A stretch of 64,000 nt of DNA. It comes from Chiloscyllium plagiosum. Lineage: Eukaryota. How positions within the stretch are numbered: position 1 is the first letter of the stretch; every line of letters starts with the position of its first letter. The stretch covers positions 31,600,466 through 31,664,465 of the forward strand of contig NC_057734.1 of the NCBI RefSeq assembly GCF_004010195.1. Direction: 5' to 3'. Position numbers and translations under genes: made by a program. This document shows positions 6,426 through 41,189 of the stretch, piece by piece. The notes below the pieces were generated by a model. That model made no database searches. It saw only the letters and a list, made by a program, of their open reading frames with translations, and was not told where the DNA came from.

Positions 6426-7234
6426 CTGTAATAAAACAAGAAACAGTTTTCATGTCATAAAGCTGAAGATAGTCTTAAAAGTCCTCTTGAAAAAGACATT
6501 GCTTATGATCTAAAATATATAGGTTACAATATTAGCTCAAAGACAGACAGGAAGCGGAGACGGCAGTGGGAAGAGTATAATGAGTTTGGAAAATATGTAA
6601 GAATACGTTTCACTCAGATCTCAACAATTCTAACTGAAGGAATTGGTTAATAATTTCTGCCTCAGTTTTCTGGTCATCTTGAAAAAGTGAATGAGGCTTT
6701 TAACACAGGTCATGGCTGCAATCAGAGAGGAGGACAGGATTTATCAAAGACCTTGGGATGCTGGGGTTGGAAGAGGGATATATGTGGAACAGTTTCTGGA
6801 TCAGAGGTCATAGGGGATTACCAGTGTTGGTGGTGGAGTAGATCGGAGACTTTGGGGAATATGCAGAAAGCAGGACCCTTGTGGGTTGGTTAAGTAGGGA
6901 GGTTTTGGATTGGTTGAAAGGCTTGGTGGTTGGGGAGATTAGTAGCTAAAGCTTTAAAGAGGAAATTAGAAGGGGAAAAAATCTAAGGCCTTTGATGGGA
7001 GGACCAGAACAATTAGTTGTAGAGGAAATCTGCATCCTTGGGGAAGAGGGTTCATGTGGATAGAAATAGCCTCAGGAGATTGGAAGAACAGTGGATGTGA
7101 TCAGAGGCCTTGCAGACAGGTAGGTGGTGCAAGATCAGAAGGATTGATGATGGTAGAAGTCTGCCTCACATTTGGGGTTGGTTGTTTGATTGGCTGAGTC
7201 ATCTAGTTTCAGTAGGTAAGTGAATCTTATATGA

Positions 7235-12801: not shown

Positions 12802-13101
12802 TGAAATAACCCCTGCTCAGGGGCCAGTGTCTTGTCACCAAGTCACCCTTTATTTGCTTGTGCACTGTCGCCAGCCAGCTCGGAGTCAATGCCCTGAACT
12901 GAGAAGACTCTAAACTCTTGGCTATACTTTTTATTAGAAAAGGTGAGGAAATAACAAGCAAACATGTTTATAACTGAATTAACTGCACAGAGGCTGGTAT
13001 CCCATCACCATGCCACACTTTATTTACTAGTGCACAGTATACTGACCGGAGCTAGCCAGTTCGGAGTCAATCCTCTAAATGGAGAAGATTATAACCTCCT
13101 G
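12802..13101 (-). mobile_element. Two partial LTRs related to the Gypsy LTR at 36382-39946
   Basis: Reverse complement reads aaataaagggtgacttggtgac...ttatttca, like the LTR 3' ends at 38254-38373 and 39827-39946. Confidence 0.6.
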
Positions 13102-35092: not shown

Positions 35093-36902
35093 CTGAAACA
35101 GAAAGATATATGTATATCAGATAATTGTTCAAGTCGACATTTTTTTTTCAGAAGTTACACATTGAATTGCAAGTTCACAACCAAATTCAGTGATTATCCA
35201 AAACTCACGATTCACTTATAGGTTGGTTTTATTTTGTCATTTGATGCATTGTTCATTTCCACCTTATCTTCCCTTTTTCCGTGTTTTAACAAACTTCATA
35301 GAAGTACAGAAAATGGGAGCAGGAATAGGCTGATCAACCCTTCATGGCTGATCATTCAACTCAGTATACTTTTCTCACTTTTTGTCCCCACATCCTTTAA
35401 TCTCTTTATGAAGTTAACTTATAGAAAAATGGCTAATCAAAATATTTTAACAGGTTTTACATCCCAAAGGAAAAGGACGGTTATGCTTACAGGGCAATAA
35501 CACATCACCTTCATAAAATGAAATGTTATGATTTACACTCCCCTCTTTATTCCTAACAATATTGTGGGTCTGTTCAAACTACCTCTGATTTCATTGGTTC
35601 AATGATGCATACTAATATAATGGTCAATAAAATGACACTCTTCCAAGAGAAGAAAGTTAATTGTGTAAAATGAAACAATAAATCAATACCTCAAATTTAT
35701 ATTTTCTAATCATGGCAAAAGTCCCATTTTAAATGTCATTTTAGCACTGAGACTGCAACCAATCTGCACACCCTGTAATGATTAGTCAATAACTTAAGCA
35801 ACATATGCAGAGTTCTTCTCAAATAATGCATATTGAGGAAGCAAATGTAACTTAATGCCATAAGACAAAATTACCATTACTTTGGAATCATTCTGTGTGA
35901 GTACTTGAAACCTGGGACTTAAAATGGAATCTAATTACAGCTGAAAAGATTAAAAAGTATCTGTTTCCTTTTGGTAGTCACTAATATGCAAACAGTGCAC
36001 TGGTGACAAGGCAATTTTATCAAATTTAGTCTACAAATAAATTTGGTATATATTAACTAAAATGAGACCATAGTCTTATGTAAAATTCAACAGGATAGCA
36101 GACATTATAGACAACCTTACTCCATCCTTACCATTCTCCAATATTTCAATTCCAAATAGGTGCAACACATTTTACTTCAACTCAGTTGTCTTAAATTTAC
36201 TTGTGCTTTTTTCAAAATTGGGATAACACAAAAAGGCAGATAAAGGTATTTAACTTTATGATTGCCAAGATTCTGATTAACGATTTAAGTTCATTGGTCT
36301 GAAATGTTAGGCATTATTCAAGCAGCTGACTAGGACAGAATCCACCAAGCGAGCAGTTGGTGAGAGTCTTGTCGTAGCTACTGTAATGAGATCAGCCAAG
36401 TCAAGACTTCAGAATATGAGTTCTCTAATGAGGGCTATTAGTCTGGTCCAATCAGAAAACCCTGGCTGACAAATAAGAACAGGAGTGTTCCTCTCCCTTG
36501 TAAAATTGCTGTCTCTTTTGTACAGCTGTAAATGTTTTTTGTAAACTGTTTTGTAATTTGTTTAATAAAAAAAAATAAACAGGAGATGGAGTCTCCTCAG
36601 TTTAAAAAAAAAGAACAGGAGTGTTACACTGCTTGTCACTGGCCACCCGGGTGTTTTCCTATCTTCCTGGTGGTGGAAATTGAATAAAGATTCGTGCACT
36701 TTGTGTCTTTCACTGTGTCTCACACCTGCACACACACACCATGGGCGCTGGGGAAAAAATAAGCACTACCGCACTTAGGTGGTAGTGTGGGGGTTAAAAA
36801 GAAACAAAAAAAAGGAAAAAAAAAAGAAAGGAGTGTAAGGGCAGTGCTTGTCACTGGCCACTTAAAAAAAGAAGAAAAAAAAGGAAAAAAATACTAAAAC
36901 GT

Positions 36903-37286
36903 TCGACTGCCTGCCCCTCTTCCGCGGTTACGTTGGGGCCCGGGTGTCTCTGGAGAAGGAGCACGCGGTGTCCACCAACACCCTGGAGTTGTTCAGGGGG
37001 AGGTGGGCGCCGCAGGGAGTGGAGTGCATTATTTCTCCCTCCAACTATATTTTGATTTAGTCCCTACCCTCCCCTCCACTGTTTTGATCACACAGCACTG
37101 CCCTTTGATGTGAAGGGCAGTGTTTGTCACTGGCCACCCGGGTGTTTTCCTATCTTCTTGGTGGTGGAAATTGAATAAAGATTCGTGCACTTTGTGTCTT
37201 TCACTGTGTCTCACACCTACACACACACACCATGGTTGCTGGGGAAAAAATAAGCACTACCGCACTTAGGTGGTAGTGTGGGGGTT
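36903..37286 (+). mobile_element. 5'-truncated Tx1-like LINE copy
   Basis: DCLPLFRGYVGARVSLEKEHAVSTNTLELFRGRWAPQGVECIISPSNYILI*, then 3' UTR, hairpin and A-tail. Confidence 0.75.
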
Positions 37287-38750
37287 AAATTATTTTAAAA
37301 AAAGAAAACAAAAAGAACAGGAGTGTTCCTCTCCCTTGAAAATTGCTGTCTCTTGTGTACAGTTGTAAATGTTTTTTGTAAACTGTTTTGTAATTTGTTT
37401 AATAAAAAAAATAAATAAACAGGAGATGGAGTCTCCTCAGTTTAAAAAAAAAGAACAGGAGTGTTCTTCCGGAAAACCCGGGTGTTTTCCTTTCTCCCGG
37501 GTGGTGGAAATTGAATAAAGATTCATGCACCTTGTGTCTCTCACTGTGTCTCACACCTGCACACACACAACATGGGTGCTGGGGAAAAGCTAACCACTAC
37601 CGCAGCTAGGCAGTAGTATGGGGGTAAAAAACGAAAAAAAAAGAAAAAGGAAGGAAAAAAAAGGATGGGAGTGTTAAAATATAAGCACTACCGCGGTTAG
37701 GCGGTAGTGTGGGGGAAAAAATTTTTTATAAAAGAACAGGAGTGTACCCTCCCCTTCACTGTTTGATCACAAAGCATTGCCCTTTGATGTCAAGGGCACT
37801 GCTTGTCACAGGCCACTCGGGTGTTTTCCTTTCTTCCTGGTGGTGGAAATTGAATAAAGATTCGTGCACCTTGTGTCTCTCACTGTGTCTCACACCTGTG
37901 CACACACACAACATGGGTGCTGGGGAAAAAATAAGCACTACCGCAGTTAGGCGGTTATGTGAGGGTTAAAAAAAAAAGGAACAGGAGTGTTAAAATATAA
38001 GCACTACCGCAGTTAGGCGGTAGTGTGGGGGTTTAAAGAAAAAAAAACAAATAAAAAAATACAGAGACAAAAAGAGAAAAAAAAGAACAGGAGTGTTCCC
38101 TCCCCTTTCACTGTTTGATCACACAGCATTGCCCTTTGATGTGAAGGGTGTTTCCTTTCTTCCTGGCGGTAGAAACTAAATAAAGGTTCGCACACCTTGT
38201 GTCTTTCACTGTGTCTCACACCTGCACACACACAATAAAAAAAACAGGTGTGTCAGAGGTTCTGTTCACTCTGAGAGCTGGCTCTGAGGAAGCTGGACCA
38301 GTGTCAAGGACTCTCCACGTGTAAATAATGGGTGACTTGGTGATGGGATACCTGCCTCTGTGGAATTATTTCAATAAAAAAAAAGAACAGGAGTGTTGGA
38401 GAAGGGGGGGACTGATTCTGGGACTGGCTAGCCCATAGCCAAAAGGGAAAAAAAGGAAAAAAAAGGAGTATTCTTTGTTGGTATTTCTCAATTATTATCC
38501 AATGTCAGTCACTCCGATTGTAATGAGGATGTTATGGGTGGGGCAAATTTTTTGTGTATGATCTTGTGTGGAATTTCACTGCACATTGCTTTCAGATAGG
38601 ATGGATGGGTTAAATCATAATCATTTGTACAAAACCTATTGGTGGAAATGGGTGTGGAATTCTTTAAGTCAACAACCACTGTTAACCCCTTCCTGTTCCT
38701 TTTCACATCAATTAAATGTTTGAAGTTTTGCCAAAGTAAAAAAAAAGTGT

Positions 38751-39169
38751 TGATCCAGGCAGTGGACCGTGGAGGGGGTCGTTAGAGACGACTGCCTGCC
38801 CCTCTTCCGCGGTTAAGTTAGAGCTCGGGTGTCTCTGGAGAAGGAGCACGTGGTCTCCACCAACATCCTGGAGTTGTTCAGGGTGAGATGGGCGCCGCAG
38901 GGAGTGGAGTGCATTATTTCCCTTTCCAACTCTATTTTGATTTAGTCCCTGCCCTCCCCTTCACTGTTTGATCACACAGCATTGCCCTTTGATGTGAAGG
39001 GCATCTCTTGTCACTTGCCATTCGGTTGTTTCCTTTCTTCCTGGTGGTGGAAACTGAATAAAGATTTGTGCACCTTGTGTCTTTCACTGTGTTTCACACC
39101 TGCACACACACAACATGGGTGCTGGGAAAAAAATAAGCACTACCGCAGTTAGGCAGTAGTGTGGGGGTT
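38751..39169 (+). mobile_element. 5'-truncated Tx1-like LINE copy
   Basis: Same ORF2 C-terminus (with stop codons), UTR and hairpin as 39239-39659. Confidence 0.75.
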
Positions 39170-39238
39170 AAAAAAAATAAACAGGAGTGTCAGAGGTTCG
39201 AAAAAAAAGAAAAAAACAAATAAATAAATAAAGAGTGT

Positions 39239-39659
39239 TGGTCCAGGCAGCGGGCCGTGGAGGGGGTCGTTAGGGCCAACTGCCTGCCCCTCTTCTGCGA
39301 TTACGTTAGAGCCCGGGTGTCTTGGGAAAAGGAGCACGCGGTGTCCACCGACACCTTGGAGTTGTTCAGGGAGAGGTGGGCGCCGCAGGGAGTGGAGTGC
39401 ATTATTTCCCTCTCCAACTCTATTTTGATTTAATCCCTGCCCTCCCCCTCACTGTTTGATCACACAGCATTGCCCTTTGATGTGAAGGGCACTGCTTGTC
39501 ACTGGCCACTCGGGTGTTTCCTTTCTTCCTGGTGGTGGAAATTTGAATAAAGATTCGTGCACCTTGTGTCTTTCACTGTGTCTCACACCTGCACACACAC
39601 AGCATGGGTGCTGGGGAAAAAAAAAAGCACTTCCGCAGTTAGGCAGTAGTGTGGGGGTT
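39239..39659 (+). mobile_element. 5'-truncated Tx1-like LINE copy (ORF2 tail 39239-39433)
   Basis: WSRQRAVEGVVRANCLPLFCDYVRARVSWEKEHAVSTDTLELFRERWAPQGVECIISLSNSILI* resembles Tx1-clade ORF2 C-termini. Confidence 0.75.
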
Positions 39660-39728
39660 ATAAAAAAAAAACACAAGTGTCTGGCATCCTGTTCACTCTG
39701 AGAGCTGGCTCTTGTGGGAGCTGAATCA

Positions 39729-39790
39729 GGTGTGTTTGTGTGTGTGTGTGTGTGTATATATACGTGTGTGTGTGTGTGTGTGTGTGTATA
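39729..39790. repeat. (TG)n/(TA)n microsatellite
   Basis: Expanded at the cagtgt motif of an LTR fragment. Confidence 0.95.
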
Positions 39791-40026
39791 CACAAGGACT
39801 CTCCTTAAAAAAAAGAACACGAGTGTCAGACATCCAGCTCGCTCTGAAAACAGGCTCGAGGGGAGCTGGATCAGTGTCAAGGAATCTCCATGTGTAAATA
39901 AAGGGCGACTTGGTGACGGAATGCCAATGTCTATTGAGCTATTTTGTGGCAATGTGAGAAAAGCACGCCCCTGAAGAATTTGCTCACAATAGACATTGTT
40001 GAGTTGAAGATAGCATTTCTAGCATT

Positions 40027-40560
40027 ATGCTGTTTTGTGGGAAGCTTGACAGTTCGAACCTGTCTTTGAAGTATGTGGAAAGAATGCATCTTTTTTCTGG
40101 GCAAATGATATTGGGGCAGATGAAAAGCAATGACTAATTCTCAAGACAGGTTGTGGACCCACAGCTTTTATCGTTATTGGCAACCTAACCTTTCCCCAGG
40201 CACCAGATGCTAAAACCTTCCAATAGTTTATGGATTTATTTAAGGAATATTACAACCCCAAGCCTCCTCAAATTCTGAGATGGTATAGGTTTTACTCAGC
40301 AATTCGAGAACCAGGAGAATCCATATTGGGATTTTTGACTAGGTTAAGATGACCGGCAGAGGCATGTGACTTTAGTTTAACCCTTAATGTGGTGCTGAGA
40401 GACCACATTTGTATGTGGGACTAATGATGTAAACATGTAAAAGTGTTCACGTGCTGAAGCCCTACTAGACTTCAAACAATTGGCTTTATCATTAGAAAAT
40501 GCGGCAAGTGGAATATGAGATGTAAAGGAGATATAGAGTATTCTGATGAAAGTGGACACC
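40027..40560 (+). pseudogene. Gypsy gag remnant
   Basis: YVERM...ANDIGADEK...FKEYYNPKPPQILRWYRFYSAIREPGESILGFLTRLR*PAEACDF...LRD..VCG, with stops and frameshifts. Confidence 0.8.
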
Positions 40561-41189
40561 CTCGTCAGTCTGTCTGAGCTTGTAGAATACCACTTAACTG
40601 AAGGCAATAGCAATAGCCTCACTCAGGACATCTCCTGTACAGAGGGACCCTTGGTCAGCCCACAGAAAAACCCCAAAACAAGCCAAGCCTAGGTCGAACG
40701 GTTAAAATTTTCTTCAGGATCCTTTCTGGCAAATCATTGTAGCTGCTTCTAGTATGTGGACTTCAGACAGCAAAAAAAGTCCCACTAGACCTAAATTGAG
40801 TGAGAGAACACATAAGTGTACTAGCAATTGGTTAGATTAAGATTCCTAGAAGTATTCTCACATACCAATATACAAGAGTGCCATTTGCTCAGATGGCAGT
40901 TAAAAGTCAACCAAATTGCTCTTCATCTGGAGTCACATTTTGGCCAGACCAGATAAAGATGGCAGATTTCCTTCCCTACAGGATATTAGTGAATCAGATG
41001 GTCTTTGTCCAACAATAGACTATGGATTCACAGTCATTACTTACATTGCTAATTCCAGATTTTTTTTATTGAATTCAAATTTAATTACCTGCCATGGCAG
41101 GATTCAAACCCAGGTCCCCAAAACATTAGCTGGGTCTCTGCATTAACAATCCAGTGACAATACCACTAGGCTATTGCCTCCCCTTCTTT

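Follow-up and report, generated by a model that had tools for sequence, protein, structure and literature searches.

The question raised by this locus is how a single long terminal repeat (LTR) in the genome of the shark Chiloscyllium plagiosum came to be split by a long series of poly(A)-tailed inserts, each preceded by a copy of the same short target motif. The window, by which we mean the whole stretch of 64,000 nucleotides analysed here (NC_057734.1, positions 31,600,466 to 31,664,465, forward strand), lies in a chromosome-scale contig of a 3.56-Gb genome. A sequence-only reading had proposed that a target-specific Tx1-like retrotransposon is stacked about 17 times at one site of a Gypsy LTR. 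We conclude, with a probability of about 0.62, that some 14 poly(A)-tailed inserts were stacked by repeated target-primed insertion at one base of the LTR, between its TATA-like box and its predicted transcription start, and that the long interspersed nuclear element (LINE) responsible likely borrows the promoter of the LTR.

The 14-nt target, AAGAACAGGAGTGT (the 14-mer), is present in seven exact copies, all on the plus strand and within 36475-39826. With up to two mismatches 11 copies were found against 0.70 expected, every one again on the plus strand and in 36475-39826, and reading by eye shows about 12 degenerate ones (the previous claim was about 11), which gives a motif total of about 19. 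As had been proposed, the inserts separate the halves of one LTR of about 235 bp (previously roughly 230 bp), followed by a stretch like a primer-binding site (PBS) and by gag-like DNA. That the array is real is supported by the seven exact 14-mers and by empty natural LTR copies elsewhere, in which both halves adjoin. Matching to natural references divides the array into 14 inserts. Ten are LINE 3' ends and two come from the 3' end of a second family (family B); the others are a piece of a LINE head and a copy (95%) of a single-copy locus. The idea that most inserts derive from one LINE 3' end therefore holds for 10/14, and the rest come from other sources. Five target-like motifs sit within inserts, each behind an A tail and often unlike the local 14-mer, and are likely read-through tails. 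The number of insertion events is thus put at about 14 (plausible range 12-19; 19 if every target-like motif is scored separately), so that repeated insertion stands and the count of 17 is lowered. Contigs of organism A from two studies bridge array junctions at 38335-38815 and 37276-37377 with zero differences and at 37386-37523 with three gaps; none of the contig records listed spans the whole array. A contig of organism B stops about 14 nt to the left of the last target; insert 12 was not seen in that comparison, and the coverage is too small to count.

The target is best identified as the LTR of a Gypsy retrotransposon, in accordance with the earlier proposal. A 96-amino-acid piece of its reverse transcriptase (RT) is 54-57% identical to protease-RT-RNase H-integrase polyproteins, one of them named K02A2.6-like; Gypsy fragments gave weak matches in Pfam, and a PDB search with the RT piece gave no match. 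In one natural copy (L215), two LTRs enclose remnants of gag and pol, and PBS-like and purine-rich sites are present; the 5' LTR of this copy is filled at the target and the 3' LTR is empty. Among 29 other LTR copies retrieved via the left half, 16 are empty, with the right half directly after the 14-mer, 12 are filled and one is unclear. In all 12 filled copies the insert begins within 3 nt of the 14-mer, at one base and in one orientation. Ten of these inserts start with LINE or family B pieces in the sense direction, and two with DNA resembling a short interspersed nuclear element (SINE), which we take to be of the tRNA type.

Comparison of 14 empty LTR copies revealed a CCAAT box and, after it, a TATA-like box; about 30 nt beyond the latter lies an initiator-like motif, and then comes AATAAA, all names that we assign from textbook consensus. 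The 14-bp duplication has its left edge inside the TATA-like box and its right edge 14 nt before the predicted start. In three arrays (L193, L197, L200), LTR right halves carry A tails about 15-25 nt past the LTR AATAAA, which may be fossil signs of a working LTR poly(A) signal.

The LINE belongs, as judged by homology, to the Tx1 clade, and placing its ORF2 in a quick tree bore out the previous assignment. A near full-length copy encodes open reading frame (ORF) 1, with a weak zinc-knuckle match (zf-CCHC), and ORF2 with an RT domain (RVT_1) and a weak zf-RVT match below the cut-off. The endonuclease of another copy matches L1-type endonuclease structures (E 1e-19) and is thus of the apurinic/apyrimidinic (APE) type. 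The natural frame of ORF2 (948 amino acids) is 51% identical over its full length to ORF2 of Xenopus Tx1L (YTX2), the best named full-length match; endonuclease identity to Tx1L is 46%. In a quick tree of 26 rows, 25 of them taken from 120 matches listed, ORF2 forms a clade with Tx1L and with turtle and sturgeon proteins (SH-aLRT 93; 100 with one further unnamed protein). LINE copies show poly(A) tails, target-site duplications (TSDs) and 5' truncation. Inverted LINE pieces, similar to twin-priming inversions, were seen in the arrays L161, L167 and L174, and full-length units in tandem, about 6.8-7.5 kb apart, at C1:107312841 and 107320373 and in L203.

Genome-wide, the targeting is a strong preference and not strict specificity. 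Two 3'-end searches gave 60 loci, of which 54 remained after removal of two self matches and four duplicates; they are the best-scoring matches and no random draw. LTR sequence flanks 25/54 of these 3' ends within 1.5 kb, and a further 5/54 lie in arrays of three or more. Kojima counted as target-specific those Tx1 families whose target makes up >20% of the flanks (Kojima 2015, PMC4494074, in the text compared), and the 25/54 found here lie above that share. The claim of a sequence-specific family is thus upheld for the preference, and its strictness is not, given the copies off target. Many off-target copies carry a clean duplication of their own of 13-16 bp. It had been considered that the 14-mer might belong to the 3' end of the element; this was rejected, as off-target copies (L003, L007, L010, L012, L022, L124) have such duplications instead. 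At least 7/24 off-target copies end in a target-like tail, which we read as transduction.

Two further elements of the previous picture are not supported in the form proposed. The 14-mer had been taken as the recognised site, regenerated by every TSD. Other arrays repeat their own local variant, each a different 14-mer, and therefore the right part of the 14-mer is unlikely to be recognised; array growth also leans to the TATA-proximal end. Moreover, the site is not used by one family only, since ORF-less family B, the copy of the single-copy locus and, at other loci, SINEs were inserted there too. RNA-guided targeting by the head of the element was considered and is disfavoured because RNAs that lack a head (the single-copy-locus insert and the SINEs) hit the same base.

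The 5' heads of full-length copies, which fall into subfamilies A2 and A1, carry the case for promoter borrowing. LTR sequence resembling the repeated (R) region precedes 25/25 A2 heads. In 20 heads (a near-duplicate locus, a twin as defined below, and three fused or shortened heads were excluded), identity is 0.60 over the 12 nt ahead of the initiator motif and 0.85 and 0.92 in the two intervals after it, compared with 0.78, 0.74 and 0.79 for the same three intervals in 12 LTRs. The heritable sequence of A2 itself thus starts at the predicted initiator; it contains no TATA box. The explanation that the R-like head is merely a long TSD was rejected beyond the initiator, where 19/20 heads have C and 10/12 LTRs have T; the L211 head also differs from its own downstream LTR, which counts against a long TSD. 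A LINE 3' piece fused straight to an A2 head (L208:1500-1600) is possibly an independent start of the arrangement found in A1.

A1 heads were found by an ORF1 query, without selection on upstream DNA. Ahead of 22/24 heads lies a repeat of the 3' region of the element itself (as judged from the flanks; an automatic flag caught 14), which derives from the end of ORF2 and the 3' untranslated region (UTR). This 5' repeat is about 45-625 nt long, with a variable left edge and a fixed right edge at reference positions 6886-6895, about 20 nt before the poly(A) signal; its starts cluster near 6667-6673 and 6808-6838. In the 11 elements with both copies, the 5' repeat is more similar to its own 3' copy than to those of others (0.929 vs 0.918, p=0.036), and 115/150 diagnostic cells agree with the own copy against 90.5 (p=0.0015, a post hoc test with n=11; identities 87-98%). 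In L102 and L111, the 5' copy has rare variants, such as a 3-nt deletion, in common with the 3' copy of its own element. Two other origins were tried and rejected: a long repeat copied from a resident downstream insert was not seen in L110, L111, L115 or L119, and stepwise 15-nt erosion of the starts showed no clean pattern. A search for a self-cleaving 5' ribozyme gave no Rfam match above noise in one copy each of A1, A2 and B, old copies of which may have decayed. The A1 5' UTR at L061:1240-1640 contains GC-rich tandem repeats that vary, as well as a purine-rich run.

No ORF of 150 amino acids, no blastn or tblastx match to the LINE and no Rfam match was found for family B (1.9 kb), which is best described from these features as a non-autonomous rider and not a classical SINE. 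Its 24 loci comprise 17 with LTR hits, three more in arrays, one tandem B pair and three off target. In the seven copies on which the statement rests, the 5' end begins at or just past a target-like motif, and the head resembles a second subtype of the LTR. LTR R-like sequence stands at the start of A2 as well as of rider B. Internal tandem repeats were seen in family B, as well as full-length units in tandem, 2093 bp apart, at C21:7857570 and 7859663 (G000).

How the arrays grew was surveyed with 357 distinct fragments, of which 186 have a target-like junction. Adjacent inserts that share their 5' start within 3 nt, here called twins, make up 39/86 pairs against 2.6 expected (maximum 9), whereas tandem dimers of non-LTR elements are described as differing mostly in 5' truncation (PMC2718515, PMC5932611, in the parts compared). 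In 36 twins of at least 60 nt, identity is 0.946 close to the junction and declines to 0.911 at 201-400 nt, a level matched by unrelated pairs (0.912), and the 3' ends differ. Twins would thus fit independent insertions whose complementary DNA (cDNA) pairs with the resident copy. That neighbours with a shared start diverge like unrelated copies also favours accumulated insertions over recent duplication, as had been supposed. With regard to polarity, divergence is higher in the last copy than in the first in 43 of 66 arrays and lower in 22 (p=0.002), and in the window the two leftmost measurable copies are young (1/144 and 4/215 sites). The lower divergence of left copies is a tendency only.

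These observations suggest the following mechanism. The APE endonuclease would nick in the TATA-like box, guided mainly by the TATA region and less by the right part of the 14-mer, and the left copy, which retains an intact upstream context, would be re-used most. The new cDNA may pair with the resident copy beside the nick, in which case the duplication would extend into the resident and the newcomer would be cut to the same start. A2 RNA would be transcribed from the initiator under the host TATA box, and after insertion its head would restore the core promoter. The A1 5' repeat may serve as a disposable leader, extended through template jumping onto the 3' copy in the way suggested for the Drosophila element TART. 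Leaky 3' ends would carry along target-like tails, and the same LINE protein presumably also serves for the insertion of family B, of SINEs and, now and then, of a cellular RNA. Since full-length copies start with either the host LTR start region or their own tail, host-promoter borrowing and rebuilding of the front end are likely. A more far-reaching version is tentative, and we would give it somewhat less than an even chance: the LINE lineage as a promoter parasite of the Gypsy LTR, which cuts in the TATA box, inserts 15 nt upstream of the start and rebuilds the initiator with its head; one branch with its own LTR-like terminal redundancy, regenerated by template jumping, so that the TART design would have arisen independently; and residents that capture cDNAs and fix their length, so that arrays would be ordered insertion records that template themselves.

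Several observations weigh against the reading favoured here. The transcription start site is a motif prediction, the 12 LTRs compared with the A2 heads were chosen by likeness to the window, and the quick ORF2 tree lacks an L1 outgroup. Twin pairs cluster in 22 loci and are therefore dependent, and their control alignments show edge effects in the first 20 nt. Polarity is weaker in loci not chosen by 3' similarity (24 vs 14, p=0.04; within-array permutation p=0.095), and the rightmost copy in the window is among the least diverged (3/216 sites). Two of the 24 A1-type heads follow LTR R instead of a 3' repeat, and the short repeats of L103 and L104 run opposite to the own-copy signal, which is drawn from 11 elements and a post hoc diagnostic test. 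Other points in this direction also speak for an alternative that we consider unlikely, in which the targeting is real and the heads represent an internal promoter captured once from the LTR, with the A1 5' repeat inherited from a few array-seated sources and neither borrowing nor regeneration ongoing. Full-length A1 copies without an upstream LTR (L074, L111) and short repeats without an own-copy signal would then be expected, and the clustered starts of the repeat are what few sources would give. It is less easily reconciled with the rare variants common to both copies of one element and the diagnostic result overall, with repeat lengths that vary widely against a fixed right edge, and with A2 heritable sequence that starts at the initiator and is devoid of a TATA box.

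The 24/54 LINE 3' ends outside LTRs and arrays, several of them at TATA-like A-rich sites (L126, L149, L150), are a further point against the favoured reading and would suit a loosely specific, L1-like endonuclease, with the TATA box as no more than a hot spot that is open and bent in the germ line and is hit by any LINE-driven RNA. The free variation of the right part of the 14-mer between arrays, the insertion of SINEs and a cellular RNA, and an endonuclease hairpin loop three residues shorter than in Tx1L point the same way. This explanation is nevertheless improbable: the filled LTRs share one base and one orientation without exception, three element types have heads that match the sequence just right of the cut, and the endonuclease of Tx1L, the nearest named relative, is sequence-specific (PMC1950540, in the part compared). 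It is highly improbable that a few insertions were multiplied into the array chiefly through unequal crossing-over or local tandem duplication, or that the array is partly mis-assembled. Such an origin would account for the block 36475-36624 that recurs at 37313-37464, for insert starts that alternate 6984, 6807, 6984, 6807, and for twins being common, and none of the contigs listed spans the array; set against this are the divergence of twins away from the junction and their differing 3' ends, the four sources of the inserts, and the internal junctions bridged in two studies.

Compared with known systems, the homing of Tx1 elements to LTRs and tandem arrays separated by TSDs are already published. 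The crocodilian families Tx1-8_Crp and Tx1-4_AMi prefer LTR retrotransposons (Kojima 2015, PMC4494074), and the target class is thus not undescribed, as had been thought; in the text compared, the LTR group and site are unnamed. The one Alligator Tx1 protein in our ORF2 tree, which could not be matched to a named family, falls in the other clade. The same text describes Tx1-Mar and SINEU, with a DNA transposon target, non-autonomous riders and tandem SINEU-3 copies that sandwich a TSD, and suggests transcription of SINEU-2B from flanking target DNA (PMC4494074). The likeness to the families in that text thus extends to a transposon target, tandem insertions around a TSD and non-autonomous riders. 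The difference lies in the heads, which are derived there from U1 or U2 small nuclear RNA and here from the predicted start region of the LTR or the element's own 3' region. Like Xenopus Tx1L, whose target is Tx1D, the LINE uses a fixed site in another transposon; the target here is the core promoter of a Gypsy LTR and that of Tx1L a piggyBac-type element, and the specificity is looser here.

Drosophila R1 elements form arrays in the same orientation with a 14-bp TSD between copies, newcomers arrive at the 5' TSD, and 5' junctions can arise through pairing of the target with target sequence borne by the RNA (PMC2718515, PMC5932611, as far as compared). The present array resembles these in orientation and in the TSD between units, with left-end growth as a tendency only, and differs from them in clade and in target, which for R1 is 28S ribosomal DNA. 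In Drosophila TART, the 5' end is directly repeated at a subterminal 3' position and a template jump has been proposed to extend the 5' copy, and head-to-tail arrays of TART and HeT-A buffer 5' loss (PMC1636488, PMC5537684, in the parts compared). The A1 repeat is similar in that a subterminal 3' region recurs at the 5' end of most heads with a variable left and a fixed right edge. TART and HeT-A are telomeric insect elements with kilobase-scale repeats, whereas the A1 repeat is short and belongs to a vertebrate Tx1 element in interstitial LTRs, whose promoter likely comes from another transposon. Membership of the LINE in TART was rejected on account of its Tx1-clade ORF2 at interstitial LTR sites. 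In the literature searched, no report was found of this target in sharks, of Tx1 heads derived from an LTR or of a terminal repeat in a Tx1 element, nor a description of A2 heads that start at the initiator, of an A1 leader from the own 3' region, or of neighbours with a common 5' junction; Repbase, Dfam and the supplements of PMC4494074 may bear on novelty. Should the proposed steps hold, a site-specific LINE would keep its promoter by inserting into the core promoter of another element and carrying the missing piece. A vertebrate LINE would furthermore have acquired a self-renewing terminal repeat, a proposed step linking LINEs and LTR elements that is otherwise discussed for the telomere elements of flies (PMC1636488, PMC5537684, in the parts compared). 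The twins offer many natural junctions for testing second-strand joining.

Table 1. Features of the filled LTR and its flanks, in window coordinates; reference positions refer to the LINE
Feature	Position	Strand	Remarks
LTR left half	36370-36488	+	CCAAT box 36448-36452; worn TATA-like box ~36471-36479; first target copy 36475-36488
Insert 1: family B 3' end, A tail, likely read-through tail, second A tail	36489-36610	+	97% to B copy L216
Inserts 2-4: 5'-truncated Tx1 3' ends	36625-37312	+	reference positions 6857-7025, 6852-6877, 6645-7025
Targets ahead of inserts 2-4	36611-36624, 36823-36836, worn one near 36890-36903	+	
Insert 5: second family B 3' end	37327-37450	+	shares start and tail with insert 1
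Targets flanking insert 5	37313-37326 and 37451-37464	+	
Inserts 6-9: Tx1 3' ends	37465-38082	+	reference 6875-7023, 6984-7022, 6807-7025, 6984-7024
Targets between inserts 6-9	37661-37674, 37732-37745, 37977-37990	+	
Insert 10: Tx1 3' piece, internally deleted, A tail, then foreign DNA and A tail	38097-38382	+	reference 6807-6968
Insert 10, foreign part	38240-38253 (target variant), 38254-38373 (complete LTR right half)	+	
Insert 11: internal piece of subfamily A2 5' head, A-rich run at end	38397-38457	+	83% to L211 head
Insert 12: 95% copy of single-copy locus on contig C8, A tail	38472-38747	+	
Insert 13: Tx1 3' end, A tail, likely read-through tail, A tail	38753-39224	+	reference 6610-7025; read-through tail 39177-39199
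Insert 14: Tx1 3' end (ORF2 end and 3' UTR), A tail, foreign part, A tail	39239-39812	+	reference 6608-7025
Insert 14, foreign part: target variant and GT-rich LTR-like element head	39681-39806	+	
Last target copy and LTR right half	39813-39945	+	AATAAA near 39898; right half 39827-39945
PBS-like site and decayed gag region	39946-40809	+	75% to internal part of two-LTR copy L215

Some of the inserts in Table 1 deserve comment. The likely read-through tail of insert 1 consists of a target-like motif and 15 nt resembling the B head. Insert 10 is likely a 3' transduction; the end of its LTR part at 38373 is marked by loose contig ends. The junctions of insert 11 are bridged by contigs. In insert 12 the A tail starts 20-25 nt past ATTAAA, and the insert is likely the 3' end of a cellular RNA moved in trans; its single-copy source (L152, G000:C8:105532572-105532832, minus strand) is likely the 3' end of a germ-line transcript. 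Gypsy homology ends at about 40809, and no 3' LTR was found within the window. A conserved inverted repeat right before the LINE poly(A) tail (39627-39652) is a candidate protein-binding hairpin, and a separate fragment at 12967-13038 on the minus strand corresponds to the 3' end of the target LTR.

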